The notes beneath the pieces were generated by a model. The model saw only the letters and a list, made by a program, of their open reading frames with translations, did no database searches and was not told the DNA's origin. Positions 3,903-49,687 of a stretch of 64,000 nucleotides of DNA are shown here, one piece after another; within the stretch, counting starts at the first letter, position 1, and every line of letters starts with the position of its first letter. The translations under genes were made by a program, and so were the position numbers. The stretch is from a virus (taxonomy: Duplodnaviria; Heunggongvirae; Uroviricota; Caudoviricetes): IMG/VR virus record IMGVR_UViG_3300045988_147321. One strand, written 5' to 3'.

Positions 3903-6900
3903 TCAACTCTCGCGTAGTCATTCATCAACGGATCATCAATTGACAGTGGTACCGTGCGCATAACGCCCGGCTGAGGCGTGCTGACCTTTACGACAGTTCC
4001 CTGGCCTTTCGCCGAGTCTTTGGTGTGCTCTTCAATCCTGGCAAGCAATGAGGTCATCTGCGCAAACAGCCGCTTCGTTTCACCATCAAGTGAAACGGTA
4101 TTATCAGCCAACTGCATTGTCGGCTTGGCACCGGAGCCGCCAAGGTCACTAATAACCTGTCCGTCTATCTGCATACGACCGGTTGGTTGCTGCAAATCGT
4201 TGGCGGCAGTCGTCACCTGGGACGTGGAGGCTGGTTCAAGCGCATTATTTTTCCGCATCCCCGGCGAGTTGCGGAGTTTATCGAATAGTCCATCAATCCC
4301 CATTTGTGCGCCGAGTTGGTCAAAGTAACTTGAGTTGCTGGCCACCGGACGCGCCTCTTCAACTGGCATCGGAGTATCAACATACACATTGCCAGCTGCT
4401 GTTGCGGTCCCCTTCCCTCGTGCACGTTCTTCGAGCGTTCCCTGAACGACTTCCCGACGCATACCCCGGCCATTCATGAATTTGTTGACCAGATCGTTAA
4501 CGCCAACAGCATTGCCGATTTTGTCTACCAGACCGCCTTTCTCAAACGGGCTATCACCAGGGGTAAACGCCAGGCCAGTAGACTGATCGATAACGGCGTT
4601 ATCAGGTATCTTTTCGTAAATTGCTGGTGCGCTATGATCTACCTTAGAGCCATAAACGGCACCATTATTGAGCATCTGCTGATACCCTCTGACACGAGTA
4701 ACATATTCGCCGGTACCTGCGACTACTCTCCCCTTATCAACATGCCCCATACCAGCATGATAGGCAGCTATTGCACGACCCTGATCACCGTTATAACGGT
4801 TCATCAGCATACTTAGGTATCTGGCGGCACCATCAGCTGCTTTTCGTGTATCCATGGCATCAGCATCGCTGAGTCCAAGATCCTCCCTTGTACCTTTAGT
4901 GATCTGAAAAGCCCCAAGGGCAGATGAAAGTTTGTTCCCGTTTTTGTCTACTGGATTTCCAGTTCTCTGGCCTGCACTAGACTCTGCGGATGCAACTGCT
5001 GACAGAATCCCTTTTTCAAGCCCATACTTACGTTCAAGCTCATCAAAATAATCGGCATTGTCAGAAATCCATTGGTATCCGGCAGCATTTAATTTTGGCA
5101 AAGAAACATCCTTGCCATTGTTAAATCGACGTTTATCTATCTCATATGCACTTAATGCTTCCTCCTTACCTGTAGCAGACTGCCCCAAGGCAGCATCAAT
5201 TGTTTGTGCTGCTTTATTTCCTGTTTCTACGGCATTTGCATTGATAATCTGATTAGCAGTTTCTTTAACTGTTTTATTGCTATCTTTCGCCATATCCAGA
5301 GCCGCATTTATCACGCGGGCAGCAATATTAGTCTGTTTGGCATCGGATTCAGTTTTAGAATCAGATGTCCCCTGGTGGCTATTAACCGGAGCTTTTAACT
5401 CTGGAGTGATTTCTTTCGCATTAGCCTCGCCGATCGGATTGGGTATTTTTGATACAATCATTGCCGCAGGGGTATTTTTAACGGCATCAACCGCTGCATC
5501 TAATGCTTTACCTGGTAAATTTTTAACCCCATCCCAAATATTACCAGCCGCCTCTTTAATGTGTTTCCCTGGGTTCTTAATGAAATCAATTGCACTATCA
5601 ATTGCATCACTGAAAACCTGTTTCAGGTTATCGACAGTAAAGAAGTCTTTGATGGCATCCAGCTTTTCAAGCAGCTTATTAGATGTATCGCTAAACCATG
5701 CTGAAACAGCATCACCAATCTTTGCTGTGTAATCATCGAACTTGGTAGAAATGGTGTCGCCAAGGTTAGAAATATATGTTTCTAAGTTGGTAATCCCACT
5801 ATCAATGGCCAGGGCAATACTTTCCGTCGAAAATGATTGCAACATATTGCCGATATCCTCAAATCCAAGTGATTTGAGAACCTCACCAATGGCGCTGCTA
5901 ATACCAGATACCAGTCCCCCCATATCAAGAACATTAGCTAACGTATAAGCGGCTTTTTGCTGGAATGATGGATCTTGTCCTGATTTAAGCCCAAACGCTC
6001 GACGTTGCGCTTCTGTATCATTCCAACCGGTTACCGCATCATAAATACCTCCAGCCACTGTGCCGACTAGGGGAATTGCGCGTAACGCCCCTTTACCAAC
6101 TGCCTTTAATCCAAGTTTACCTGCTGCCCGGGCAGCCAAATCTCCGCCTTCATGGGCGAGAGTCTTCTTGCCACCACCGCGTAGCATTCCTACAAGTTTC
6201 TTTGCCCCCAGAGCGCCAAAAGCGAGTGCTCCAGCTTTTTTCAGCATGCCACGCCCCATTAACAACGACGCGACGCCACCGGCCCCCTTCCCTAACAGGC
6301 TAAATAATTTGGACAGCAAGCCGCCCTTCTTTTTCCCGGTGTTTTTGGCTATCTGATCAAGGGCGCTGAGAATCTTGTCATTGCCCTCTTTAATTTCGCT
6401 GGTCTGATCCTGAAGTTCCTGAACCGTCCGTTTTTGGGTGTTAACCTGAACGACATCGGCACTATTTTGCGATTTACGCCTAAAAAAACCTTTTCTACGG
6501 CTGTTATCGTCATTGCCACGAATCACATCGGCAATAGACTTTCTGGCACCATTAAGCGATCCACCAACTTCTTTTGATATCCCGCCAAGCTCCTTCCCTG
6601 CGGCCCACAATGGACCAGCAACGGCATAACCTAACGCATCGACGGCACGAGTCTCTGAAGGGTTACCTATGCCTTCAGCTACTTTTGACAGTTTTTTTAA
6701 TAAACCTGATTCAGCATTTAGACGCTCATCATCCTCTTTTCGCCTGGCCTTTTCTGCTCGTTCAGCACGGGCATCTTCCGCTGCGGCCTTACTCCCTGAC
6801 TTTCCAATAAAACGACCACGCGCATCGCGTTGGTTTTGGCTTTTTTGCGCACCGCCTTTTTGACCGAACATTTCGCGAGCGTGTTCGGCTGCTTCGGTCC

Positions 6901-7273
6901 GTTGCGCCTTTACATCCTCTGGTATAGCCTTCCTGCGTCGTTTTTTACCATTTGGTGTGGTTGATTTGGCCCGCTGTTCCTGTTGAGCAACATCTTCCTG
7001 AACTACACGAGAAACGTCCCCTAAATTAAGCCGTTTCATTGCGTCAACAATAGGGTCTACTGATGGCGCTTTGGCCACAAAGTCAGGCCGGGAATTTTCG
7101 ATTGTGTGATTTAATGCCGACACGCTGCGAGAGACAGGATCAACAGTAGCAACTCGCCCACCTTTCAAATCTTCAACAGCTTCCCGGATACCAGCAAGCT
7201 CTTCCAGCTCTTTTGCGCTGGCGGTTTCAACTGTCCTTATAACATCGTCAATGTTGGCGTTTTTTCTTTCCAT
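3899..7273 (-). CDS. sit: Sit-like injection transglycosylase / tape-measure-type protein, 1124 aa
   Basis: C-terminal soluble lytic transglycosylase motif (GAFQITKGT ... AIAAYHAGMGHV); long Ala/Gly/Lys-rich and coiled-coil N-terminal region; size near P1 Sit. Confidence 0.8.
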   Translation of the reverse strand: MERKNANIDDVIRTVETASAKELEELAGIREAVEDLKGGRVATVDPVSRSVSALNHTIENSRPDFVAKAPSVDPIVDAMKRLNLGDVSRVVQEDVAQQEQRAKSTTPNGKKRRRKAIPEDVKAQRTEAAEHAREMFGQKGGAQKSQNQRDARGRFIGKSGSKAAAEDARAERAEKARRKEDDERLNAESGLLKKLSKVAEGIGNPSETRAVDALGYAVAGPLWAAGKELGGISKEVGGSLNGARKSIADVIRGNDDNSRRKGFFRRKSQNSADVVQVNTQKRTVQELQDQTSEIKEGNDKILSALDQIAKNTGKKKGGLLSKLFSLLGKGAGGVASLLMGRGMLKKAGALAFGALGAKKLVGMLRGGGKKTLAHEGGDLAARAAGKLGLKAVGKGALRAIPLVGTVAGGIYDAVTGWNDTEAQRRAFGLKSGQDPSFQQKAAYTLANVLDMGGLVSGISSAIGEVLKSLGFEDIGNMLQSFSTESIALAIDSGITNLETYISNLGDTISTKFDDYTAKIGDAVSAWFSDTSNKLLEKLDAIKDFFTVDNLKQVFSDAIDSAIDFIKNPGKHIKEAAGNIWDGVKNLPGKALDAAVDAVKNTPAAMIVSKIPNPIGEANAKEITPELKAPVNSHQGTSDSKTESDAKQTNIAARVINAALDMAKDSNKTVKETANQIINANAVETGNKAAQTIDAALGQSATGKEEALSAYEIDKRRFNNGKDVSLPKLNAAGYQWISDNADYFDELERKYGLEKGILSAVASAESSAGQRTGNPVDKNGNKLSSALGAFQITKGTREDLGLSDADAMDTRKAADGAARYLSMLMNRYNGDQGRAIAAYHAGMGHVDKGRVVAGTGEYVTRVRGYQQMLNNGAVYGSKVDHSAPAIYEKIPDNAVIDQSTGLAFTPGDSPFEKGGLVDKIGNAVGVNDLVNKFMNGRGMRREVVQGTLEERARGKGTATAAGNVYVDTPMPVEEARPVASNSSYFDQLGAQMGIDGLFDKLRNSPGMRKNNALEPASTSQVTTAANDLQQPTGRMQIDGQVISDLGGSGAKPTMQLADNTVSLDGETKRLFAQMTSLLARIEEHTKDSAKGQGTVVKVSTPQPGVMRTVPLSIDDPLMNDYARVD

Positions 7274-7354
7274 GATCTTATCGCCTACCGTTTCGGTTTA
7301 AGTTTTTCTTCCAGTTTCTCCAACAGGAAAAACGCATAGGATTCAGTGAGCCTT

Positions 7355-8236
7355 TCAGCGTCCTGAATCGGTATACCCCCATACAAAACCAGGTTGGACA
7401 CTAAGGTCTGATAGCTTTTCAATCCCCACCTGTGGAATGAAGTCGGTAGCCCGAAAGGGCACCCACAGACGGGTATACGCACCCTCTGTGGACTCCTTTT
7501 TATCCTGGTTTGGGCATTTATGCGGCGGGAGACGAAGACGCATTTCACCTTTATCGATGTAGCACGGTAAACCATGTTCGAGCTTTTCATGAGCCAGTCG
7601 GATGTGTGCCGCCAGCTTCATAAATTCAGTATCAATGGCCATCCGTTTAATCGTTTCATAACGACGCTCAGCCTGATCTTCACGAGTACCGCTAACATCG
7701 TTATAAAGCTCACACTGATAAGCGAATTCCCAAAAACGCAAATCAACGATCGCTTCTTTGAATTCCGCGTCGTCTTCAGGTGGCAATGCTGCACGGCGCA
7801 TCTCCAGCATTTCCATTGCCCAACCATCAAGCGGCACGATACGCCATTGATAAGGCACTCCCTCTACAGACACCTCAATATCGTCAATGAAAGGTTCCAC
7901 TTCCAGGACCTGGATATCTTCAGCCAGAGCATTCATATCGCAATCGTAATAATGCTCTTTACCGCAATGTTTACAGGTGTAGGTGAATGTCTCGACCGGT
8001 GTTTCACGGGAGCCGGTAAATATCCACCATAACGCGGTAATCCGGTCCTGCGCCGTCCATGTCAGGGGATCATGTTTCGCGGGTTCAGCCAGCAAGGCTT
8101 TTAAATATGCCGTTGTCTGTTGTTCTTGTTCCTCCGGTGTTATCGAGTTGAAACGCATCGCATCAGCAATATTTGGCTGACGGAACTGGATCAATTCAGT
8201 TGGCCGCGATGGTAGCGGGAAAAGGGGTAAAAGCAT
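7355..8236 (-). CDS. tail assembly protein upstream of sit, 293 aa
   Basis: ORF track; position; its 3' end is overlapped by a second frame (7285-7590) that runs to 12 nt before sit. Confidence 0.4.
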   Translation of the reverse strand: MLLPLFPLPSRPTELIQFRQPNIADAMRFNSITPEEQEQQTTAYLKALLAEPAKHDPLTWTAQDRITALWWIFTGSRETPVETFTYTCKHCGKEHYYDCDMNALAEDIQVLEVEPFIDDIEVSVEGVPYQWRIVPLDGWAMEMLEMRRAALPPEDDAEFKEAIVDLRFWEFAYQCELYNDVSGTREDQAERRYETIKRMAIDTEFMKLAAHIRLAHEKLEHGLPCYIDKGEMRLRLPPHKCPNQDKKESTEGAYTRLWVPFRATDFIPQVGIEKLSDLSVQPGFVWGYTDSGR

Positions 8237-19742: not shown

Positions 19743-21470
19743 TTACTCAGAGTCACCGGCATCAATCGTGTCGCCGCTTATGAAGTTAAGCCCGCCTTTT
19801 TTGGCCATTGTCAGCGTTACACGAGTGAAGTAATCAGCGCCGTTGCGTGGGTGCATATCGTTGATAGCCGAACCCCACAGCGTGGTACGGTTGACCAGCG
19901 CCGGAGTGGTCGGATGCTGGAACGGGATGGCCGGGACAGCATCACCAGTCACGAAGCCTGCTTTACCCGGATTTTCATCACGGACGTAGCACAGCACATC
20001 CATCGAGCTGAACTGAATGTTCTCTGTCGTTAAGTTCTTACAAATACCAGCAGGTACTTCGTACACTTTCACGTTACCGAACAGGGTACCGATGTAGTGA
20101 ACATACGGAGTCTGGATATAGTCTTCGGCTGGCTGGAAGAAATCCTTCGGCAACTGTTTGAAGAAAGATGCTGCATCAGCACCAGCAAACATCCCCATCG
20201 CACCAGAAGATTTAACGCGCTCAATAATGTCGCGATATACAGTCTGGAATTTGCCACGAATGATGGTTGCCCATACATCAAAGGACTGGTTAACCGGCAG
20301 AGCGATGTCAAAGGTGTCGGTCGCAAGAGTACGCCAGATCATGATGCGAAGACGCAGCATATCCTGTTCATGAGACAGGTATTCCTTCAGGGTGCGGAAC
20401 TGTAGGGAACCCAGGTCCAGACCAAATTCACGCTGTGCTTCATACGCCGCCTGTACCGTGTGCTCAGCCGCGATAACGAACTGACTTGGGAACAGGGTGT
20501 ATTTCTTCATTTCGTGGTTGATCAGCGGGATCAGCTCAGGAGCGGCTTCAATATTGATTTCCGTCTCAATTGCGATCTCAGTGCCTTTATCCGGCGCTTT
20601 GGAGAACGACAGGGCAATCTGACCAATGTTGTAGTTCAGAGAGCAGGTAACAGTGATTTGCTCACCAGCAGCATTAGTAAACGAGTGAAGTAGGCTGCCG
20701 GAACCGTTATCAACAACAGACTTAATACGGTTAACGTAGATGTTAGTACGACCTTTTCGGATTGGTACATTCTGGCCTTCGAAGTCTTCCATCTTGAAGG
20801 TTGCGGTTTTGCTGGTGCCATCGGAGCTTGCCACCAGCACATAGCGGCGACGTAACTGGCTGTACACACCGACGGATTGCATGTCCAGAACATCACCAGC
20901 AGCATAAGAACCAAAAGAGGAACCTGCCACGTTAAAGACTTCATAGATGTCGGACTGGTCACGCGTAACCGGAATGAAGGTACACGCATCAGCGGTAGCT
21001 GCCCCCAACTGAACAGGCAGGATCATCGCGAGGAATAAAGGCAGACGCATAACACCGTCAGAAACGCTCATCATCTCTGCTGCGACGGATTCCAGCATCG
21101 CTTTATTAGTGGCATCCATGCTATTGCGGGTGGACTCAATCAGGCAGTTTTCCAGCGTCTGGTGGCAGGAGGCCAGAATTTCCGGACGCGGCATAGATTT
21201 ATGTGCTGCGGCGTAGTCAGCCAGTGCACTTGCCCACGCTGTAGCGATTTGAGCGGTGGCATTATCAGAGATACCCGCAAAAACCGGGTCTTTACGTGCA
21301 GCTTCAAGGATAGATGCGGCACGCGCGGCATCATCTTTAATGAATTGGTTATCAGTACCGAACTGCGCAGTGCTTGCCCAGCCAAGCACAGCTTTAGAGC
21401 GTTTTGCGATATCTGCAATACGATTCTGGTATTCGCGTAAGTTACTCAATTTACTCTTCCTTAAACACAA
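19743..21470 (-). CDS. major capsid protein precursor, 575 aa
   Basis: Size near 62 kDa; P1 gene 23 position next to parB. Confidence 0.45.
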   Translation of the reverse strand: MCLRKSKLSNLREYQNRIADIAKRSKAVLGWASTAQFGTDNQFIKDDAARAASILEAARKDPVFAGISDNATAQIATAWASALADYAAAHKSMPRPEILASCHQTLENCLIESTRNSMDATNKAMLESVAAEMMSVSDGVMRLPLFLAMILPVQLGAATADACTFIPVTRDQSDIYEVFNVAGSSFGSYAAGDVLDMQSVGVYSQLRRRYVLVASSDGTSKTATFKMEDFEGQNVPIRKGRTNIYVNRIKSVVDNGSGSLLHSFTNAAGEQITVTCSLNYNIGQIALSFSKAPDKGTEIAIETEINIEAAPELIPLINHEMKKYTLFPSQFVIAAEHTVQAAYEAQREFGLDLGSLQFRTLKEYLSHEQDMLRLRIMIWRTLATDTFDIALPVNQSFDVWATIIRGKFQTVYRDIIERVKSSGAMGMFAGADAASFFKQLPKDFFQPAEDYIQTPYVHYIGTLFGNVKVYEVPAGICKNLTTENIQFSSMDVLCYVRDENPGKAGFVTGDAVPAIPFQHPTTPALVNRTTLWGSAINDMHPRNGADYFTRVTLTMAKKGGLNFISGDTIDAGDSE

Positions 21471-21500
21471 GGCACTTGTGTGAATCCCTTTTCGGAAGAG

Positions 21501-21520
21501 ATTTTATTGAAAGTCACTTG
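21501..21520 (-). promoter_or_regulatory. candidate late promoter (GTGAC-N6-TAAAAT, minus-strand sense)
   Basis: Shares AAGTGACTTTC with the element upstream of pacA. Confidence 0.3.
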
Positions 21521-21585
21521 TTGACTTTCTCGTGACAAGCAATTTTTTTATTTTTTTCGGGAGTAGGGGAGGAAGGTAAAATCCA

Positions 21586-21672
21586 AGGTGAAATCGTGGC
21601 GATTTCACCTTGAAATTTTAGAGGGATTTACTTTAAAAACAGTAGGTTAATAGTGAAATTTAAATGGCGAAA
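21586..21672. other. parS: parS partition site (ParB heptamer GTGAAAT/ATTTCAC and hexamer TGGCGA boxes flanking an AT-rich bend site)
   Basis: GTGAAATCGTGGCGATTTCAC at 21588-21608 and GTGAAAT ... TGGCGA at 21654-21670, directly downstream of parB. Confidence 0.8.
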
Positions 21673-21674
21673 GT

Positions 21675-22676
21675 TTAAGGCTTCGGCTTTTTATCGAGGC
21701 TCTTTCTAAGGATATGCCCAATCATCCTGTCGAGTTCTTCCTGTAGCTCTTTTGAAAGTCGATTAAACTCATAAGAAAATGCACGGCCTTTCACGCGCTT
21801 CCTTGCAAAGCGATCCTTGTCCTCAAATATCCATAATTCAGTAACTACGGACTTATCTTTAGAACCTTTATCCGTGAGTAGTGAGGCTTCCTTTGTTATC
21901 AAGCGCAGGATTTTATTTTTAACTTCATCTTCGGCCATTTCTTCAATGGATAAGATGTCGTTTATTTCCGGGGATATGTTTTGAATAAGCTGATCAAACT
22001 CTAAATTCTTGTTCCCCATTTCGTCGCCAACAGCACAAAGCGTTTTGTAGTCCGAAAAGGTTAATTCCGACTGCACAGGGAAAAGGGCGACTAATTCTTC
22101 CGGAGCACTCGCTGCCTGGAGAGCACGCGTGACCTTCGCCTGAGACAGCCCTTCTTTGGCTGCAATATCCTTCTGACTCATCCCATCATTTTTCATTCGC
22201 ATCAAACGCAGACCTATTTCTCGAATGCTGTGCTGCAATGCTGTCTGAACGTCTTTCGCTAAATTTTGCGCTTCCTGAACGCTGATCTCCTGGTCCGTGA
22301 CTAAAACCCGCAACCCTACGTTCTCTAAGATGGCAGAAGCTCGACGCCGGGAACCATCCAAAATTTCAATTTTCCCTGTAGCCCGTCTAACACCTATTGC
22401 AGGGTAAAATTGCTGATGCTTAATAGTGCTTCGGATACTTTTTAATGATTTTGGCGTAAGAGATGCCTGGTCACGCCCGTTGTTATGCTGATCAACAAAG
22501 GTATCGCTTTCTACCTGGTTCGGAGGTATTACCTCTTCAATAAATGTGGCCTGGCGACCAGTTGATAACTTGAATACCTGCTCGACTCGATCGCCAGAGG
22601 CTGAAGAACTATCAAATCCGCTTAATATTGAAGGATTAAGGGTTCGCCCAATTGTTGGTCTGTTTTTCTTTGACAT
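21675..22676 (-). CDS. parB: ParB partition protein, 333 aa
   Basis: Size and position; adjacent parS boxes. Confidence 0.85.
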   Translation of the reverse strand: MSKKNRPTIGRTLNPSILSGFDSSSASGDRVEQVFKLSTGRQATFIEEVIPPNQVESDTFVDQHNNGRDQASLTPKSLKSIRSTIKHQQFYPAIGVRRATGKIEILDGSRRRASAILENVGLRVLVTDQEISVQEAQNLAKDVQTALQHSIREIGLRLMRMKNDGMSQKDIAAKEGLSQAKVTRALQAASAPEELVALFPVQSELTFSDYKTLCAVGDEMGNKNLEFDQLIQNISPEINDILSIEEMAEDEVKNKILRLITKEASLLTDKGSKDKSVVTELWIFEDKDRFARKRVKGRAFSYEFNRLSKELQEELDRMIGHILRKSLDKKPKP

Positions 22677-22692
22677 GGGGGTTTCTTACTCC

Positions 22693-23889
22693 TCAGTTAG
22701 ATCTGATAAATTCAATACGGTCAAAAACTGCTTTAGCAAAATCTTCCGCAGCAATTCGCGCGTTCTTCAATGCATCAGCACTACCAACATACGTTGCCGG
22801 GTTAGCTGAAATAACAGTGTCAAAAGACTCGCCGCAGCGTTCAAAACCGTCAAGGCGAGGGAGGACAACATCAAGCATATCCCCACCGAACACTTCTTTA
22901 GCCAGGCTATGGCAATACTTATGGTCTGCCTTGTTACTCAACTTGGACATAAAACCAATGTTAGTTGCAAGCTGACACTCGCAGCCTTCATCCGAAATGA
23001 GTTTCACCAACTCAGGAAGGCGGGCAACGTATTTAAGCGATGAGTGGAAATCAACCGTTGCAGGCGGCAGAGGTGTAAACAGTATATTGGCCGAGGCCAA
23101 AGCATTTTTCAGGAAGGCGTCAAGGTGAGGACCACTATCAACGAGGATAAAGTCATAATCGCTCTTCAGCTTATCAATCACATTTTCTTTCAGGACTGCA
23201 TGGATGTTCTGACCCGGTAGATGCTCATTGCACAGCTCTCTCCAATCGGATGCAATAAAGGCATCGTCAATCGACGCAGGCATAACGTCAACCCCAGGTA
23301 CAACAGAAGGAACAATAAACTCCTCTAACAGCTCTTCACGGCTTACATTCTGCAACATAGCCTGTGCAGATGTTGCGTTTACGATACCAATAGAGTGTTT
23401 ATGGCTTAAAAACATCGTTGCTGAAGATTGCGGATCAAGGTCAATAACCAGAATCCTTAAATCTTCCATCAGAAGATGAGGATGAGCACGCATTGCATGC
23501 GCCAGAGAAACCGTCGATACAGTTTTTGACACACCGCCTTTAAGATTGGAGATGAAAATCACATACGCTTCGCTGTAGCGATCCCGGTATTTTGGCACTC
23601 CGCGATGTTCATATATGTCAATGATGTTCTGAATTGACATCGCATATTTCATTGAAGAGCCAGCAGGGCGTTTATCGAAAACATAACCCTTTTCTTCCAT
23701 TTCACTTACGGCATAGTCAACGTTCGCACGAGTCAGTAGAGGCAATTTTGCCAGTGCCGCTTTCGCATAGACCTGGTAAAACTCGTTCGCGTGTAGCTCA
23801 TCCTTTTGCAACTGTACTTGTTCAGTCAGAACATTGAGCATTCTATTTGCTCTTTGAGCAACCTTGTGAAGCTGGCTGGAATCACTCAT
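22693..23889 (-). CDS. parA: ParA partition ATPase, 398 aa
   Basis: Deviant Walker A KGGVSKT; size. Confidence 0.85.
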   Translation of the reverse strand: MSDSSQLHKVAQRANRMLNVLTEQVQLQKDELHANEFYQVYAKAALAKLPLLTRANVDYAVSEMEEKGYVFDKRPAGSSMKYAMSIQNIIDIYEHRGVPKYRDRYSEAYVIFISNLKGGVSKTVSTVSLAHAMRAHPHLLMEDLRILVIDLDPQSSATMFLSHKHSIGIVNATSAQAMLQNVSREELLEEFIVPSVVPGVDVMPASIDDAFIASDWRELCNEHLPGQNIHAVLKENVIDKLKSDYDFILVDSGPHLDAFLKNALASANILFTPLPPATVDFHSSLKYVARLPELVKLISDEGCECQLATNIGFMSKLSNKADHKYCHSLAKEVFGGDMLDVVLPRLDGFERCGESFDTVISANPATYVGSADALKNARIAAEDFAKAVFDRIEFIRSN

Positions 23890-24028
23890 CGAAAGTCATC
23901 CTTTATGCTGTATTTTTGAATTTAATTAAAAATGCTGCATAAAATAATAATGTATGCGTAGATGCTTGTACATAGCATTCTCTGCATGTTTGGTTCATTT
24001 TGCACGATTGAGAGTTACAAGGAGGGCA

Positions 24029-24050
24029 CAAAAAAGCCCCGTTCAGGGGC
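24029..24050 (-). terminator. intrinsic terminator 8 nt after the 24058 stop
   Basis: GCCCC-GTTCA-GGGGC hairpin followed by a U-run on the minus strand. Confidence 0.55.
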
Positions 24051-24057
24051 ATCAGTG

Positions 24058-24867
24058 TTATTTGCTAAGAGCAGCGAATAATCGTTCGAAATCGATAGTA
24101 TCTATAGCACGCGTAAGCGCCGGAAGTTCAGCCTCAAAGTACCCGTGTCGATCGTAAAAGAAGGGACCGAAGAGCGAGGCATGTTGGATTCTACTTCGCC
24201 CCAGCCCGGACACACAGTTAAGCCCATTACCGGCTAAAAGGCTAAAAAACTTCTCTGGATTATCGTGGTAAAGCTGGGAATCAATGGTGGCGGTTAACTC
24301 TTCCATAGGGAAGCACACCCGCCCTGTATCCCAGGGATATTTAGTCCGAAGCATAAACATTGCTTTCAGCAATTCACATTGAGCGCGGATCGCGTCCGGT
24401 TCATAGCCAGATATGGAGACATAAGCCACGTCCCTCATTCCTGCGTCATCTTTGAAAGTCACGATAGAAGTAACATCCAGCTCTTTTTCGAAAGAGCAAG
24501 CAGCATCTACTGGACGCTGAAGTAAATCATTCGACTTAATGCGCTCGAGAATCCCTCCCCACATATCATTTAGATATTCGATATGAGCCAAAACCTTATC
24601 AAGACACTCTCGTGTAAACCATTCAGTATGCCCGCCACCGACGCTTTTCTCCCACGGCGCATTCCAGGGGAAAAAGGTTGCGTGTAAAGCCCGCTCAAGA
24701 TTAACCATTACCAAACGCGTACCACGATAGACCCGTGAAAGCGCAAAATCGGGACTCACTTGTAGCCCTTTAAACCGTGCCAATGGACCACATGAAATGC
24801 CGATTTTAAAAGTATCTCCGTTCTCTGGCACCAGAACGTAGAGGTAGTGTTGTTTCTCTTCTTGCAT
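24058..24867 (-). CDS. T5orf172/Mug113-type (GIY-YIG-like) N-terminal domain protein with uncharacterised C-terminal domain, 269 aa
   Basis: N-terminal YLYVLVP ... FKIGIS ... GGGHTEWF motif pattern; single gene with its own terminator between par promoter and incA. Confidence 0.45.
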   Translation of the reverse strand: MQEEKQHYLYVLVPENGDTFKIGISCGPLARFKGLQVSPDFALSRVYRGTRLVMVNLERALHATFFPWNAPWEKSVGGGHTEWFTRECLDKVLAHIEYLNDMWGGILERIKSNDLLQRPVDAACSFEKELDVTSIVTFKDDAGMRDVAYVSISGYEPDAIRAQCELLKAMFMLRTKYPWDTGRVCFPMEELTATIDSQLYHDNPEKFFSLLAGNGLNCVSGLGRSRIQHASLFGPFFYDRHGYFEAELPALTRAIDTIDFERLFAALSK

Positions 24868-24884
24868 ATCAATACCACTGCTTG

Positions 24885-25158
24885 ATGAGAACCGCGCAAA
24901 TGTTGACTATGCGCGAAGGTTAATGTGAATAGTTGACTATGCGCGATGTGACTACAGTCAAAAGTTGACTGTAGTCGATTTAACTCCACCAAAGATCGAC
25001 TATGTAAGATATTGTCGGGAGAAACGTTGACTATACGCGATGAAATGCCCCTAAAAGCCATCTCAATAGCGACTTGCAGAATATTGACGCCAGCAAAAAT
25101 CCACCAGCGTCAACGAATGTCGCCTATAGTCAACTTCTCGCTATCGCATATAGTCAAT
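24885..25158. repeat. incA: incA iteron array (about nine RepA-binding repeats, core TGTTGACTATGCGCG variants)
   Basis: Repeats read directly; downstream of repA. Confidence 0.8.
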
Positions 25159-25159
25159 A

Positions 25160-26044
25160 TTATGGATTGCGCTTATGGATCTGGAAGCCGATTTTCCTGC
25201 CGTTTTTTATCTCTGAAAATTTAAGATATTCAATAGCTTCCAAATCTTTCATGGCTTTTCTGATAACGCTATTTTGCACGCTAACGGATGATTTGAGATT
25301 AAGCCTCGCTCTAAGGCGCTCAATGCTGACAGGTGCCGGGTTGGCGGGTAGAGCCTCAAAGAATGTATACAGTACCTTGGCCGTCTCTTTGCGCCCTAGT
25401 TTATCCAGCATCTTCAGCTTCAGGATTCGCTTATAGTCAACATAGTAAAGTTCAGATAGCTGTTTCTGCGGCTGGATCTCGATAACATCAAGCTCGGTAT
25501 TCAGGCTGCTATATGCCAACAAGTTGACGTTAATGTTATTGAGATGACCTTTTGCCGCCGGGAAGCGGAATTTGACAACTGTCTGCTGAATGCGTGTCAG
25601 AGAGTCATCAATACTTTTACGGAACGCCTTTGAAAGGCGCTTACGTGGATAGCCGCATCGATCGGCAAACTCGGAGAATGGCAGGGTGATTATGCCGTCA
25701 TCATCAGGTGCGTAGTCAAACAACGCGGAGGTTATGCCCACCCACACCTTAAAATCAGTATCCATATCCAGGCGTGGGCCATGAATTTCAATTCCCTCAT
25801 AGCCTTCCTGCTCAACAATTTTAAGGCTTGATAGTTCTTCGGTTGCGTTCGTTGTGTTTGTAGTAACTGACGATCCGCGACGTAGTGCCACATTGGTAGA
25901 TTTTAAGGTTGGCACAAACACACCTAAGCGCAACAAAGCGATAGGTTGTATAGTGCTGTTGTTATTAGGCTTCAGGCTGTGGATTTCTCCTGTATTTCCT
26001 GCAACTTCTTCAACGCTAAGGAAGCCTTTACTTTCTTCCGGCAT
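25160..26044 (-). CDS. repA: RepA plasmid replication initiator
   Basis: Flanked by iteron arrays on both sides. Confidence 0.8.
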   Translation of the reverse strand: MPEESKGFLSVEEVAGNTGEIHSLKPNNNSTIQPIALLRLGVFVPTLKSTNVALRRGSSVTTNTTNATEELSSLKIVEQEGYEGIEIHGPRLDMDTDFKVWVGITSALFDYAPDDDGIITLPFSEFADRCGYPRKRLSKAFRKSIDDSLTRIQQTVVKFRFPAAKGHLNNINVNLLAYSSLNTELDVIEIQPQKQLSELYYVDYKRILKLKMLDKLGRKETAKVLYTFFEALPANPAPVSIERLRARLNLKSSVSVQNSVIRKAMKDLEAIEYLKFSEIKNGRKIGFQIHKRNP

Positions 26045-26104
26045 CGTGGTTTCTCCATGTGTGGCGCGGCCTGGCGTTAATTTAGATGACTGTTATCAAC
26101 AGCT

Positions 26105-26230
26105 GTGAATATTCAGGCTCTAAAATCGCGTACAGTCAACGTTTCTGTCGCGTATAGTCAACAATAAATCGCGTGCAGTCAACATAAAATCGCACACAGT
26201 CAACATAAAATCGCGTATAGTCAATGTTGA
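26105..26230. repeat. incC: incC iterons (five repeats, core AGTCAAC) of the plasmid origin
   Basis: Repeats read directly upstream of repA. Confidence 0.8.
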
Positions 26231-26352
26231 TCCCGTTTCAGGCCATGAACGGCGCGGCTTACAGCGATCCGGGATCTTCTTTGGATCTTCCTAGGTTCTC
26301 TTTGGGATCTGTTTATTGGATCTATGCTGTGGATAAGTTGAATAAACCGGCC
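26222..26352. other. oriR: oriR: GATC cluster plus DnaA box TGTGGATAA
   Basis: Five or more GATC sites in about 90 bp and a consensus DnaA box, adjacent to incC. Confidence 0.75.
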
Positions 26353-26378
26353 AACATAGCCGGTTGGAAGGAAGGGTA

Positions 26379-26771
26379 TTATTCTACGCTTTCGATAAGA
26401 AGACCATGTTCATAACATTTAAGCTCATCGCCTTCGTACAGGAATTGGTATCCAATACCACCATTTTCATGGACATTAGGGAATAACTCATAACTCACTG
26501 AAGAGCAAATCACACCAATGCAGCGATCAACGCCTTCTCGTTCTTCAGTGCTGAAAAAATCCTCTTCGGTAAGAACATGAGTACATTGATCATCAGCATA
26601 GGTCGGAAATACATGCTCAATGCAATCCGGGTGTTTTAAACCAAGCTGAGCGGCAAGCTCGAAAGCATGACGGTATTGTTCAGATCCTGGCTTGCCAACA
26701 GTGATGTGCTCAATTTTGTAGATTGAAGTCGCTTTGTTGATAGTTTGCTTTACTGTTACTTTATCAGACAT
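26379..26771 (-). CDS. hypothetical protein, 130 aa
   Basis: ORF track. Confidence 0.4.
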   Translation of the reverse strand: MSDKVTVKQTINKATSIYKIEHITVGKPGSEQYRHAFELAAQLGLKHPDCIEHVFPTYADDQCTHVLTEEDFFSTEEREGVDRCIGVICSSVSYELFPNVHENGGIGYQFLYEGDELKCYEHGLLIESVE

Positions 26772-26782
26772 AAAAATCCCTT

Positions 26783-27034
26783 TTAGTTACCGCTGATAGC
26801 GCGGTTGTAATCATTAACGTTGCGATTCTTCCTGTTAATCCCCATCAGCATCGTTTCTGTATCGAGGATATACGCTGGCAGATCATCGAAATATTCACTG
26901 CTAAACTCTGGCATTCTGCACATAAATGCACTTTTGGGGGCAGGGTGGTTAACCTTTGTCGGCGTCGGCGTTAAATTCGCTGATCGACTCCCGGAGCAAC
27001 CGCTGAGTGTCAGCAGGAATGCGCTGGCGAACAT
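26783..27034 (-). CDS. o-spanin-like lipoprotein (Rz1-like), 83 aa from internal start
   Basis: MFASAFLLTLSGCSG lipobox followed by Pro-rich segment; start lies inside the upstream i-spanin-like ORF. Confidence 0.45.
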   Translation of the reverse strand: MFASAFLLTLSGCSGSRSANLTPTPTKVNHPAPKSAFMCRMPEFSSEYFDDLPAYILDTETMLMGINRKNRNVNDYNRAISGN

Positions 27035-27398
27035 TACCCGCCGCAACCAGTTGTTTCTGAACTTCAGCTTTTCGTTCCATTTGCCTGTCAGCATATTTGG
27101 CTTGTTCTGATTCATTTTTCACTTCCTGGCTGTGAAAATGTTGCTCTGCTTTGTTCATCGTCTCAATGGTCTGGTTAAGATCCATTATTGACTTATCACG
27201 TTCCTTAACAGCCTGATCAAGACTGCCAATTTTCTCGATGGCTTGCTTTAGCTGATGACGTTCCCATGCAAACCCAGCACCAACAAGTGCGCAAATCAGA
27301 ACAAGAACACCAGTAGCAGCAAGTTTCTCCTTCAAAGACAAAGCTGTTTTTAACGTAGAAAAGAATGACATGTCTTCCTCCTGAAGAAAAATTATCAA
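26949..27398 (-). CDS. i-spanin-like protein (Rz-like): N-terminal TM helix plus periplasmic coiled coil
   Basis: TM segment VLVLICALVGAGFAW followed by charged coiled-coil region; overlapped by the lipoprotein ORF. Confidence 0.45.
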   Translation of the reverse strand: MIIFLQEEDMSFFSTLKTALSLKEKLAATGVLVLICALVGAGFAWERHQLKQAIEKIGSLDQAVKERDKSIMDLNQTIETMNKAEQHFHSQEVKNESEQAKYADRQMERKAEVQKQLVAAGNVRQRIPADTQRLLRESISEFNADADKG

Positions 27399-27410
27399 TG
27401 AAGTCCTTTG

Positions 27411-28256
27411 TTACTGTGCCGCTTTGTTTAATTCATCAAGAACAGAATCAGGAACCAAAGCAGCAACTGCGCTGGCTGTGCTGGCCTTATTTGCTGATGC
27501 TTCCGCAAGCGCAGTACCGATAGCATGGTTATAAGCAGTTATGGCTACATTGGCGCTTTCATTCGCTCGTTCATACTGCTGTTGTAACGCAGTTGTGGGC
27601 GCTGTTGTCTGGTTGAATACAACCCCAAACTGTTCAGTTGCTACTTTCAGAGATTCAATTTGCTCTTCTGTTAGTGCTGGTGGGGGAGTGGCAGTGCCGC
27701 CGCCTGAACCAGAGCCTGACGAGCTTCCTGAGCCAGTGTTAAGGGTCTGGTTAATCTCCCCCATAGCAGCGACTAAACTTGATGTATTAAGCGCGTTTAC
27801 AGCGTCCTCAAGCGATTTAGTAATAGTCACATCACCAATGGCAATAGAGATCGGCAGTTCTGATACTTCTCGCTCATTAGCACGGCAGTAAACATCCCAA
27901 CCAATATCGAGTTGAAGCAGCATTGACAGATCTGCATAACCAGCCAACAGGTCCGCGTGCTTAGTTGCCAGTTCTCCAATGTTCGTTAAGCCGGTTGTGG
28001 TTGTTCTGATCGTTGAAACATAGCTGGTAATAGTGTCGGGATAGACAATTGTATCCAGAATTAATCCGGTCAATTCTTCTGCAAGCAGTTTTGCTGTGTT
28101 AGCACTGTTTCGTGCCGATGTTATGGCACCAGGTGTTTTCATCCCACCGGCGGCGGCCAATTTTTTATATGCGGATAACTGGTAGTCTTTTTCCAGCATG
28201 ATATCTCCTAACTTACCTGAACCAGGCCGTCTCCGGACGCTACGGTAGATCCGCAT
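27411..28256 (-). CDS. hypothetical protein with Gly/Ser linker; probable internal start near 28199
   Basis: ORF track; the annotated N-terminus overlaps the upstream PAAR gene. Confidence 0.35.
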   Translation of the reverse strand: MRIYRSVRRRPGSGKLGDIMLEKDYQLSAYKKLAAAGGMKTPGAITSARNSANTAKLLAEELTGLILDTIVYPDTITSYVSTIRTTTTGLTNIGELATKHADLLAGYADLSMLLQLDIGWDVYCRANEREVSELPISIAIGDVTITKSLEDAVNALNTSSLVAAMGEINQTLNTGSGSSSGSGSGGGTATPPPALTEEQIESLKVATEQFGVVFNQTTAPTTALQQQYERANESANVAITAYNHAIGTALAEASANKASTASAVAALVPDSVLDELNKAAQ

Positions 28257-28492
28257 GAAACAGGGTCACCAACGCATACGATCCCTTTACCATTGACGGT
28301 AAACCATGCCCTGGTTGATATAGCTTGCCCACCGTGCGTACTGTTTCCATCGGTATGCTGTGCATATTGCTTACCATCAACTAACACTTCGACTCCGTTG
28401 ACTTTAAGTAGTGCTTCACTCTCTACAGGAGGCCTGGATGGGAATCCTCCGTGCCCCGAACAAATGCTGTCTTTTGTTGCAATACTTGCCAC
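28208..28492 (-). CDS. PAAR-repeat spike-tip protein, 94 aa
   Basis: CSGHG ... VNGKGIVCVGDPVSCGSTVASG pattern typical of PAAR proteins. Confidence 0.5.
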   Translation of the reverse strand: MASIATKDSICSGHGGFPSRPPVESEALLKVNGVEVLVDGKQYAQHTDGNSTHGGQAISTRAWFTVNGKGIVCVGDPVSCGSTVASGDGLVQVS

Positions 28493-28573
28493 GTTATCAC
28501 CAATTATTTGCTCTGATTTTCGTTATTTTAACTCAGGTTGTTTGTGGTCTACATGGAGTTCAACTATTGCAAA

Positions 28574-28590
28574 ATTGCTCTAATAAATAT
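28574..28590 (+). promoter_or_regulatory. C1 repressor operator (ATTGCTCTAATAAATAT)
   Basis: 1 mismatch to consensus; divergent region upstream of the hrdC operon. Confidence 0.6.
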
Positions 28591-28661
28591 TGTTTTTTAT
28601 GTCGTATTTTCGGTACCATTCAGCCATCGCCCTTCAATGGGCATTTGTTTGGAGTCGTCAG

Positions 28662-28946
28662 ATGCAGATGGAGCTAATAAGCCGCAAAGAGTTCGATAGC
28701 CGTGTAACCAGCGGTGAACTCGACAACTTGCAGGCTATCAAGGTGAAAGAAGGCTTTTGCCTCATTGGGAATCAGAGCGGAACAAATCGCGTTTTTATGC
28801 TTCGCCGTACGGATTTGAAGCCATTTGTCTGGAAGAACGAAATTGGTCCCAGCTCATACGCTCAAACGAGGGGGTGCCACAACCTGGCCTTTTTCTACAA
28901 AGACGAGCTTTCTGTGGTTGATATTCAAGGGTTACAACATGTTTAA
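28662..28946 (+). CDS. small protein upstream of hrdC, 94 aa from internal ATG
   Basis: ATG at 28662 with SD; overlaps the hrdC start. Confidence 0.35.
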
Positions 28947-29844
28947 GCACTGGAAAAACATTACTATTTATAAACTTTCTCGTGAGGCGGATCTGACCGA
29001 CTTAGAAGATAAAAAGAAAATGATCCTTTTCACACCATGCGGTAGTCAGGATATGGCCAAGTTCGGTTTTGTATCTCCATTTGGTGATAATTCCGAAGTT
29101 ATCGCTATGCATGGAAATGGTTTTATCCTTGTTGAAGCAAAGCGCGAAACAAAAATTCTTCCCCCGCCGGTTATCCAGCGAGCTATTCAAGAAAAAATTG
29201 AAAAACTTGAGCAAGAACAAGCGCGTAAACTGAAGAAAACAGAGAAGGACTCCCTGAAAGACGAAGTTCTGCATTCTCTTCTGCCACGGGCTTTTTCAAA
29301 GTTTTCTGTTATCCAGGCGATCTACGACGGTTCAACTAAACGTATCTATATCAATGCCAGCGCGCGGCAGGCAGAGGATATGCTCGCGCTTATGCGTAAA
29401 TCTCTGGGTTCTCTTCCTGTCGTTCCCCTAAGTGTTGAAAATCCCATTGAATTAACGCTGACCGACTGGGTACGTGATGGTAGTGCTCCACAGGGATTTC
29501 AAATGGGGGATGCGGCAGAACTTAAGGCAGTGCTTGAGGATGGCGGTATTGCCCGAGTGAAAAAGCAGGATTTGGGAAGCGATGAAATTTCCACACACCT
29601 GGAAGCTGGCAAGCTCGTCACTAAGTTGGCACTCGACTGGCAGAACCGCATTAAATTTACACTGGACCATAACTTCAGCCTTACCAGCGTCAAATTTGCG
29701 GATGAATTGCTTGAGCAGAACTCTGATATTGATAGTGAAGATGTAGCGCAGCGACTGGACGCAGATTTCTTCCTGTTGACCAGTGAAATTTCGTGCCTGG
29801 TTGATGCTCTGGTAAATGCCCTTGGTGGAGAGGCTAAGCAGTGA
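28939..29844 (+). CDS. hrdC: RdgC-like recombination-associated protein, 302 aa
   Basis: Near-colinear with E. coli RdgC as recalled (LSRE ... [11 protein letters not shown] ... EAKIEKLE ... [23 protein letters not shown] ... GGEA); start at internal ATG 28939. Confidence 0.8.
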
Positions 29845-47934: not shown

Positions 47935-48112
47935 TGATTTTTAAAACAGAGAAAGTGAAAATAAAAACATGCCGCAAGGCGCGGCATGTATCCAATCAAT
48001 CACAGGAGCTGAAAATATGAACACGGCATTCAAAATCATTATGGCCGCGATCTATTTCTGGCTGTTCTCTATCACTTTTGGCGGCATCGTCGCGCATGGG
48101 TAAGGGGGATGC

Positions 48113-48805
48113 ATGAAAGGCGAAGTGAAAGAGCGCGGCATGATTTTCAACGATGAGATGGTCCGGGCCATCCTCGAAGGAAGGAAGACGCAGACTCGCC
48201 GACCTGTAAAAAATGTCAGGGCCGATAACTGCCTGGTTATCCGTAAACCGACAAAGAAACGCAATGGTGTCTATACCCACGTTATGGATGCACCGGAACA
48301 TGGTTTATGCCCGTTCGGTAACGTTGGTGATCGTATATGGGTCCGTGAAGCGTGGGCGATATTAGGCAATGAGGATGGTTGCAGTGTGGACTGGAACGAC
48401 AACCTTTGTCGTGACGATGAGAAGAACGCAGCAAGGATTTATCGGGCCAGTTGTGAGCAAAAGCCTGGTGATTACGGTTTATGGTCGATACCCGATGATG
48501 CCGACTGGAAACCTCACACTGTGAATGAAAAGTATGAAGGAGGGTGGTGTCCATCAATTCACATGCCGCGATGGGCATCGCGCATTTTGCTGGAAATTAC
48601 CGACGTGCGTGTGGAACGGCTGCGTGATATGAGCGAGGCAGATGCTAAAGCAGAAGGCGCATCTCCGGCGATGTACAAAATTACGCCGCCGGAAGCTGTT
48701 TATCGCGTTGGTTTTGGTGATATCTGGCGCAGTATTTACGGGCAGGATAACTGGCTATCTAACCCGTGGGTATGGGTAATCGAGTTTAAGCGCGTTCAGG
48801 AATAA
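48113..48805 (+). CDS. hypothetical protein, 230 aa
   Basis: ORF track. Confidence 0.35.
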   Translation: MKGEVKERGMIFNDEMVRAILEGRKTQTRRPVKNVRADNCLVIRKPTKKRNGVYTHVMDAPEHGLCPFGNVGDRIWVREAWAILGNEDGCSVDWNDNLCRDDEKNAARIYRASCEQKPGDYGLWSIPDDADWKPHTVNEKYEGGWCPSIHMPRWASRILLEITDVRVERLRDMSEADAKAEGASPAMYKITPPEAVYRVGFGDIWRSIYGQDNWLSNPWVWVIEFKRVQE

Positions 48806-48808
48806 ACC

Positions 48809-49687
48809 GTGAGTATGCATCAAGTCGTCAGCTTTTCAGGTGGACGAACATCGGCTTATCTCGTTCATCTGATGGAAGCACAGCGAAAAGCTGGCGCTAG
48901 CGTCCATTTCATTTTTATGGATACCGGCTGTGAACATCCTCTGACGTATCGCTTTATTCGTGAGGTTGTGAAGTTCTGGAATGTACCGCTAACGGTGTTG
49001 CAGGTCGATATAAATCCAGAACTTGGGCAGCCAAATGGTTATACGGAATGGGAACCAAAGGATATTCAGACGCGAATGCCGGTGCTTAAACCGTTTATGG
49101 ACATGGTTAAAAAGTACGGTACGCCATACATCGGCGGCGCGTTCTGTACTGACAGGCTAAAACTCACCCCTTTCACGAAATATTGCGATGACCATTTTGG
49201 GCGAGGGAATTACATCACATGGCTGGGTATTCGTGCGGACGAACACCGTAGGCTGAAACCGAAACCGGGCGTCCGGTATCTTGCAGAGCTGTCAGATTTT
49301 GATAAGTCGGATGTTATCCGGTGGTGGCGAAAACAACCTTTTGATTTGCAAATCCCGGAGCACCTCGGGAACTGTGTTTTTTGCATCAAAAAGTCAACGC
49401 AAAAGCTGGGGCTTGCATGTAAAGACGAACCTGGTCTGATGCGGGTTTTTAATGAACTGGTTACAGGCAAACACGTCAGAGATGGTCATCGCAGAACAGG
49501 TAAAGACGTTATGTACCGTGGCCACCTGACGCTTGACGGGATTGCCAGAATGTATGCCGACAGTGACTACAGAAATTTGTATCAGGCGATGGTGCTGGCC
49601 AAGCGGTTTGATACTGGTTCGTGTTCCGAATCATGTGAAATCTGGGGTGACCAATTGGAGTTGAAATTCGAAGAGGTAGTGGAATGA
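48809..49687 (+). CDS. PAPS-reductase-like PP-loop protein, 292 aa
   Basis: N-terminal SFSGGRTSAYL PP-loop motif. Confidence 0.55.
   Translation: MSMHQVVSFSGGRTSAYLVHLMEAQRKAGASVHFIFMDTGCEHPLTYRFIREVVKFWNVPLTVLQVDINPELGQPNGYTEWEPKDIQTRMPVLKPFMDMVKKYGTPYIGGAFCTDRLKLTPFTKYCDDHFGRGNYITWLGIRADEHRRLKPKPGVRYLAELSDFDKSDVIRWWRKQPFDLQIPEHLGNCVFCIKKSTQKLGLACKDEPGLMRVFNELVTGKHVRDGHRRTGKDVMYRGHLTLDGIARMYADSDYRNLYQAMVLAKRFDTGSCSESCEIWGDQLELKFEEVVE

Follow-up and report, generated by a model that had tools for sequence, protein, structure and literature searches.

Why should a plasmid replicon carry, at its very edge, a gene for a putative nuclease that phage P1 does without? The question is raised by a stretch of 64,000 nucleotides from the IMG/VR virus record IMGVR_UViG_3300045988_147321 (the window in what follows, always at its whole length), which is a P1-like phage-plasmid and has, between the RepA iterons and the promoter of the par operon (Ppar), an open reading frame (ORF) for a protein with a T5orf172 domain, of the GIY-YIG superfamily. 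P1-like phage-plasmids are found in ~8% or more of complete Escherichia coli genomes, carry extended-spectrum β-lactamase (ESBL), mcr and other resistance genes, and have two main replicon types, IncY and p0111. As set out below, the nuclease gene is the last gene of a p0111-type replicon module, and we tentatively take its product to be a site-specific nuclease of a selfish or competitive kind, which would be directed at rival P1-type elements through homing or marker exclusion.

Parts of this picture were already known. The gene has been annotated as ‘GIY-YIG nuclease family protein’ (its RefSeq label) or ‘T5orf172 domain-containing protein’, and its arrival with the p0111 repA is in print, the replacement in phage-plasmid JL22 of repA (IncY) by repA (p0111) plus a gene of unknown function, gp57, which is the counterpart of the gene described here, having been noted earlier (PMC9603915). 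No functional study of the nuclease gene was found in the literature. What is new is that it has just four lineages, all in a slot at the replicon edge, that its alleles co-vary with the replicon type, that it marks a recombination boundary, and that it is dispensable and fast-evolving; a plasmid replicon module is also an unusual setting for a free-standing T5orf172 nuclease.

The replicon edge and its exchange

Comparison of the window with P1 by blastn gives 99.1% identity over positions 21000–23991 and 95.0% over 26251–29000, with no match between them, and the 2.26 kb at 23992–26250 stand in for 1.5 kb of P1 that comprise incA, repA, incC and part of oriR. The replacing segment consists of oriR, iterons, repA, a second set of iterons, the nuclease gene and a terminator, and it is 98.8–99.9% identical to the modules of SJ46, JL22 and RCS47. 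A megablast search of a phage collection with 1.8 kb around the gene likewise returned identities of 98.8–99.9% in SJ46, JL22, RCS47, phi456 and others, with reference P1 matching only the parA/Ppar end. The nuclease gene is the last gene of this different, p0111-type replicon module, the par-side boundary of which lies 66 bp past its stop codon. Both the P1 replicon (incC–repA–incA) and the RepFIB/p0111 replicon of SJ46, RCS47 and JL22 have an initiator gene flanked by iterons and lying next to parAB. In canonical P1, however, Ppar follows incA with no gene in between, and the nuclease gene is an extra, outside the defined minimal replicon.

The first-pass annotation of this DNA had located the gene between the RepA iterons and Ppar and supposed it to be absent from canonical P1, and in both respects it was right: P1 homology is missing there, the annotation of reference P1 (NC_005856) has no coding sequence (CDS) between incA and Ppar, and a tblastn search of the incA–Ppar spacer of P1 revealed no trace of the gene (best E = 0.22). 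Its picture of a one-gene insertion relative to P1 has to be given up for the window, where the alignment breaks from 23991 to 26251 and the iterons and repA are also non-P1; it is the whole replicon that differs, with RepA 41–42% identical to that of P1. A true one-gene difference from P1 was seen only for another allele, P0009, in the IncY-like locus L049, where the last incA iteron and Ppar are separated by ~1.0 kb as against 214 bp in P1. The same site is empty in P1 and in at least 144 IncY plasmids, which are continuous with P1 through incA–Ppar.

Homologues were sought among GTDB species representatives, IMG/VR, 5.8 billion 90% clusters (word-indexed) and 1.84 billion 50% representatives (exhaustive HMMER), and only four full-length lineages were found in these cluster and representative searches, namely P0001 of the window, P0004 (44% identical to it), P0009 from Salmonella enterica (26%) and P0011 from a faecal metagenome (28%), identities among the diverged homologues of the slot ranging from 24 to 44%. 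The other ~150 matches share just the nuclease domain of ~100 residues. P0004, P0009 and P0011 all lie in the same P1-like slot, in the order repA, iterons, nuclease gene, Ppar, parA, parB, and the P0009 and P0011 types are absent from PLSDB and the phage set. The four nuclease alleles pair with four sets of RepA and iterons: P0001 with the p0111-type RepA of the window, P0004 (locus L003) with a RepA 84% identical to it, P0009 (L049) with an IncY-like RepA 83% identical to that of P1, and P0011 (L051) with a third type, 43–48% identical to the others.

The edge of the exchanged block can be seen a second time in the comparison of L003 with L049. Their backbones are nearly the same (ParA 100%, ParB 98% and gp23 99% identical; DNA 94–98.6% identical), whereas the block of oriR, repA, iterons and nuclease gene is non-homologous, and homology returns 63 bp (L049) or 84 bp (L003) past the nuclease stop, mirroring the boundary between the window and P1. 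Such a position would suit a free-standing homing endonuclease gene: a stand-alone ORF beside conserved genes, with homology boundaries 63–84 bp past its stop codon in two independent backbone comparisons. Other IncY plasmids lose P1 homology exactly at the incA end and continue into a P7-type par module; since IncY modules switch to the P7-type par at exactly this point, the junction of incA and Ppar is a general point of recombination between rep modules and par modules, and it is on this junction that the nuclease gene sits. Two plasmids of this kind, pHYEC7-mcr1 (L055) and plasmid B of E. coli D9 (L056), have IncY repA/incA joined directly to a P7-type par operon (ParA of 401 aa, ParB of 321 aa), P1 homology stopping at the last incA iteron. 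The slot between repA and parA may also accept other cargo, as in the IncY P1-like pSvP1, which is reported to have two unrelated ORFs there (48,004–49,273; PMC6906374).

Of the two flanks, that towards par is closer to P1 (99.1% identity) than that towards upfA (95.0%), which suggests that exchange extends farther in the direction of upfA, either in one tract or through separate recombination events; upfA also varies more than any other neighbouring gene in the population described below (pS 0.11).

Linkage to the replicon is close to complete among sequenced plasmids. In PLSDB the nuclease gene occurs in 401 records and this repA-plus-iteron segment in 399, nearly all at ≥95% identity, and in tblastn searches of PLSDB all copies were >90% identical, except for one unrelated Cupriavidus match to the N-terminal domain. 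Among 5426 complete E. coli genomes 412 contain the gene, in 421 matching places of which 414 are on plasmids. The seven chromosomal places include one that was inspected (NZ_CP093011.1, 4389245–4398054), which has the whole upfA–repA–nuclease–parAB block in the same gene order and is a P1-like element in the chromosome, by integration or by an assembly join. The ORF is a real gene and no product of chance, given that it has a full-length match to phrog_2876, falls in a 90% cluster with 1241 members, is found in these plasmids and genomes, shows a pN/pS below 1, and has diverged homologues in the same slot.

A p0111-family RepA gene of 76% nucleotide identity is present in CP042620.1 (88524–89408), a different, non-mobilizable phage-plasmid of 93.6 kb, where it adjoins a phage tail gene and has neither an adjacent parAB nor the nuclease gene. 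The p0111 Rep family is thus used by at least two phage-plasmid backbones, and the nuclease gene is not obligatory for a replicon of this Rep family. Nor is there a general link to replicons in the wider T5orf172 subfamily, as judged from two further loci, one (P0015) in a relaxase/TrbM/UmuC region of conjugative-element accessory type and the other (P0013) in a defence-island-like chromosomal island.

The nuclease domain and the C-terminal domain

The first-pass annotation had recognised a T5orf172/GIY-YIG-like domain at the N-terminus and left the remaining ~170 residues unassigned, and domain searches agree with it on both counts. Pfam T5orf172 (PF10544) matches residues 8–85 (E = 9.5e-6) with 26.5 bits, the gathering score being 20, and the other three lineages score 25.1–28.0 bits; matches to MUG113 and Tox-URI2 fall below threshold. 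The motif elements YLYV, FKIGIS, R31 and GGHTEWF are present, and nine core residues (Y10, K21, G23, R31, E58, H62, G79, E82 and F84), which are 93–100% conserved in 148 T5orf172 relatives, are all kept in the window protein and invariant in the alignment of the four lineages, so that loss of catalysis is not indicated. In PHROGs, the full-length match phrog_2876 is of unknown function and an ‘endonuclease’ family matches the N-terminus, while a search of NCBIfam gave no equivalog match. Two AlphaFold models, from a 3-sequence alignment (pLDDT 62) and from the 4-lineage alignment (pLDDT 72), predict for the N-terminal domain a GIY-YIG α/β structure with an SLX1-like fold, the nearest structural relatives of which are phage T5orf172 domains of the homing-endonuclease type. 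The protein is probably a free-standing, catalytically active T5orf172 DNA endonuclease.

The C-terminal ~165 residues had no match in Pfam, NCBIfam or PDB sequence searches. Their model shows an α/β region followed by a winged-helix-like unit (H-H-H-β-β) at about residues 183–231 (24175–24321), and the predicted fold weakly resembles the winged-helix Rep WH1 and RepE. It is a reasonable inference that this is a putative winged-helix DNA-recognition domain, and the rapidly diverging C-terminal domain most likely supplies recognition of the DNA target. A Rep-derived origin, to which the modelled resemblance might point, is unproven; profile–profile comparison (hhalign) of the domain with five RepA types gave a probability of 0.2%, and a chimera detectable in sequence, either with its own or with any P1-family RepA, was rejected on this result.

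Most of what is known of T5orf172 proteins comes from the ICP1/PLE system. In phages, free-standing T5orf172 homing endonucleases mark the boundaries of genetic exchange, and one T5orf172 protein, CapR, is a domesticated repressor (PMC10448857). The T5orf172 genes of lytic phages described by Barth et al. (2023, PMC10448857), e.g. ICP1 gp53, gp121 and gp130 and those of T5-like phages, resemble the window gene in encoding a terminal nuclease domain and a separate DNA-recognition region, in being stand-alone ORFs beside essential genes and at recombination boundaries, and in the fast change of their modular non-nuclease domains. They differ from it in that they carry zinc-finger DNA-binding repeats (CapR/DUF723/DUF4397), where the window protein has a 165-aa domain of no family and without such a motif, and in being multi-copy and scattered, where the window gene is single-copy, in one plasmid-replicon slot, and shows no presence/absence polymorphism within its lineage.

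A second comparison is with Odn (ICP1 Gp88), in which a T5orf172 nuclease is fused to a RepA_N domain and cleaves the origin of a satellite at its iterons (Barth et al. 2021, PMC8263062). The two proteins have in common the T5orf172 nuclease domain, a connection with replicon biology and co-variation with replicon modules; the window model matches that of ICP1 ORF88 in the nuclease domain, and its structure hints weakly at a DNA-binding domain resembling that of Rep proteins. In Odn, however, the N-terminal domain is 42% identical to a RepA_N domain (PMC8263062), whereas no similarity in sequence to any RepA was detected for the window protein; the two domains stand in the opposite order; and the window gene lies beside its own replicon, unlike Odn, which is encoded by a predator of the replicon that it targets. 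A nuclease directed at origins in the strict sense of Odn would be a Rep-derived iteron reader aimed at a competing origin, such as that of IncY P1, a competitor that shares an identical and hence incompatible par system. Homology of the DNA-binding domain to the iteron-binding domain of a Rep initiator was looked for in sequence and not found, and we hold this explanation to be quite improbable. About as improbable, in our estimate, is a ‘replicon-policing’ nuclease, encoded by the plasmid within its replicon operon, the Rep-WH1-like C-terminal domain of which would read the iterons or origin of rival P1-type replicons sharing the partition system, and which would be released in a burst as the element enters a cell and RepA autorepression is still low, destroying or converting the rival and driving the swapping of modules; if true, this would be the first Odn-like origin-directed nuclease in plasmid incompatibility warfare.

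Dispensability, selection and the role of the gene

Selection was examined in a population set made up of the RCS47 locus, one locus from a GTDB genome, 44 IMG/VR loci and the window. Here pN/pS is 0.31 for the nuclease gene, compared with 0.02 for RepA, 0.00 for ParA and 0.06 for ParB, and synonymous diversity in the gene is similar to or below that of its neighbours. Within this population positive selection was not seen to be concentrated in the C-terminal domain, where pN/pS is 0.33, as against 0.28 for the N-terminal one. Eight of the 45 informative copies are inactivated, seven by nonsense mutations (W68* in one locus, S112* in five, and Q228* in L022, 4324–5130) and one by an insertion sequence (IS); the other 37 are intact with every core residue. 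In the IS-disrupted locus (L045, 6295–8057; IMGVR_UViG_2645727563_000002), an IS200/IS605-type element with a TnpB-like ORF of 389 aa and a Y1 TnpA-like ORF of 141 aa replaces nucleotides 295–523 of the gene (codons ~99–174).

The existence of the W68*, S112* and Q228* copies indicates that viable, inducible phage-plasmids tolerate loss of the nuclease, and the gene is dispensable for maintenance, replication and partition included, and for phage growth and viability. The earlier proposal of an accessory rather than a housekeeping gene is borne out by this record of inactivation and by the relaxed selection. The gene also evolves much faster than its neighbours, the C-terminal domain especially: between the window and L003 the protein is 44% identical (63% in the N-terminal and 33% in the C-terminal domain), against 84% for RepA and 89% for ParA.

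Is it, then, a decaying passenger, once a homing endonuclease but by now functionless and fixed in the module? In favour of a passenger are the many alleles broken by nonsense mutations or an IS, the elevated pN, and the lack of any remaining empty site in the p0111 lineage. Yet pN/pS remains well below 1, most copies are intact with every core residue, and homologues in the same slot down to 24–28% identity imply long-term selection, and we consider such a passenger very unlikely.

The gene might instead have been domesticated, as CapR has, into a DNA-binding accessory factor of replication or partition, which would bind the iterons or Ppar and so adjust handcuffing, the copy number or the expression of par, while its nuclease activity would no longer matter or would have dwindled to nicking. 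The position between iterons and Ppar is fixed in four lineages, the gene co-varies with the RepA/iteron type, and it is probably co-transcribed with repA; the weak likeness of the C-terminal fold to Rep WH1 and RepE and the precedent of domesticated T5orf172 proteins (PMC10448857) are also in line with such a factor. Against it stand the absence of the gene from P1 and at least 144 IncY plasmids, which function nonetheless, its absence beside the related Rep in CP042620.1, and the inactivation of ~18% of copies, the elements that carry them being otherwise intact. So does the conservation of all catalytic-core residues, which would be unexpected after domestication, and so does the comparison of the window with L003, where iterons and RepA are conserved and the C-terminal domain is just 33% identical. 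On balance we regard domestication as decidedly unlikely.

The first-pass annotation had seen in a nuclease-like single gene the classic form of a defence or anti-defence gene, for which we found no direct support. A single-gene defence or anti-defence cargo of this kind would cut invading, perhaps modified, phage DNA, with the C-terminal domain sensing the invader, and would resemble PD-T4-3 and other defence nucleases, which are likewise single-gene nucleases of GIY-YIG fold on mobile elements. The protein matches no defence family in PADLOC-DB v2 (0 families, even at E ≤ 1), and the family occupies one slot of one element type, where it tracks the replicon type and shows no movement between defence islands; its nearest structural relatives, as noted, are of the homing-endonuclease type. 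A role in defence thus appears unlikely. A selfish or competitive nuclease is favoured over it by the homing-endonuclease-like domain, by the location on a recombination boundary and by the strictness with which the gene is linked to one replicon type.

Such a nuclease would serve one element in its conflict with relatives, much as phage homing endonucleases and ‘marker-exclusion’ nucleases do. Rival P1-like genomes or replicons without the cassette would be cut at a specific site, and repair would then copy, or selection would favour, the replicon module to which the nuclease itself belongs; competitive cutting in favour of its own module could account for a gene placed exactly at the replicon-exchange boundary. 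The pattern of a homing endonuclease fits best, since the gene is a stand-alone ORF at the edge of an exchanged module, has a hypervariable non-nuclease domain, and frequently decays once fixed. Several observations nevertheless weigh against this preference. The gene is fixed within the p0111 lineage (401 against 399 records), with no empty site there, and homing can therefore not be observed at present; the family never occurs outside a single slot of P1-like elements, whereas homing endonucleases that are actively mobile do move about; a pN/pS of 0.31 means continuing purifying selection and implies some benefit beyond pure selfishness; the contexts of P0015 and P0013 are equally compatible with a role in defence; the promoter scans reported below have little power; and the target site is still hypothetical.

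Were the competitive or homing role correct, it would explain the exchange of whole modules on near-identical P1 backbones, might explain the coexistence of the IncY and p0111 types, and would give the T5orf172 ‘boundary nucleases’ known from lytic phages a counterpart in plasmid replicons. A decaying passenger or minor defence gene would be an ordinary accessory gene, and the importance of the gene would rise sharply if rival replicons prove to be the target of the nuclease.

Layout and expression of the locus

The genes follow one another on the minus strand in the order gene 23, parB, parA, nuclease ORF, iterons, repA, second iteron array and upfA, when read by increasing coordinate; the positions are collected below.

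Features of the replicon–partition region of the window (positions in the 64,000-nucleotide stretch)
Feature	Position	Strand	Remarks
Gene 23	19743–21470	−	
parB	21675–22676	−	
parA	22693–23889	−	
Ppar (par operon promoter)	23944–23972	−	P1-identical DNA; maps exactly onto annotated P1 Ppar; followed by parA
Whole non-P1 replicon module	23992–26250		replaces P1 (L001) 6393–7892; blastn against P1
Intrinsic terminator	24029–24050	−	stem-loop 24036–24050, then T run
Nuclease CDS	24058–24867	−	269 aa; ATG start, TAA stop
C-terminal domain	24061–24552	−	residues 106–269; no sequence family
N-terminal nuclease domain	24553–24867	−	residues 1–105; Pfam envelope 8–85 = 24613–24846
incA-like iteron array downstream of repA	24898–25160		six copies
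Four incA-like iterons, one orientation	24898–24916, 24928–24946, 24960–24978, 25022–25040		
Two incA-like iterons, other orientation	25120–25136, 25144–25160		
repA	25160–26044	−	p0111/RepFIB-like initiator, 294 aa; Rep3_N and Rep3_C domains
Five direct iterons upstream of repA	26121–26228		spacing 21–22 bp; origin/repA-promoter array, incC-like

In all four lineages the start codon of the nuclease gene lies 25–30 bp past the last iteron, whatever the iteron type (~30 bp in the window), and the Shine–Dalgarno sequences are weak. Consensus scans found no terminator between repA and the nuclease gene in the window, and one directly after the nuclease gene both in the window and in L051; that of the window, which the first-pass annotation had correctly assigned to the gene, is a GC-rich, terminator-like hairpin (GCCCCTGAACGGGGC, 24050–24036 on the minus strand) followed by TTTTTTG, 7 nt past the stop codon. 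No consistent consensus match to a σ70 promoter of its own was found in any lineage (there is one weak match, in one lineage), in scans of low power. Transcription of the gene probably starts at the repA promoter or inside the iteron array and would hence be under RepA control, and the terminator would end transcription of the module just before Ppar.

The iterons of the window have the core TCGCGyATAGTCAAC, unlike P1 iterons, and four of the six copies downstream of repA are reversed relative to the five upstream. An extra copy lies inside the repA coding sequence (25427–25443; TCGCTTATAGTCAACAT), 88% identical to the reference copy, and this intragenic sequence is kept in the repA of L003. 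The nuclease gene shows no foreign base composition, with a GC content of 0.47–0.49 as against 0.41–0.48 in its flanks.

Two annotations of the family call for correction. In phi456 (OR339795.1, 39521–41321) the same gene is labelled ‘terminase small subunit’, very likely a misannotation; ‘T5orf172-family nuclease, replicon-module associated’ would be correct, rather than that label or ‘replication gene’. In L003 (8001–8123) the database call of P0004 starts 41 codons early and runs through the iterons, which are translated as ‘AYSQH’ twice, upstream of the conserved ATG at 8124.
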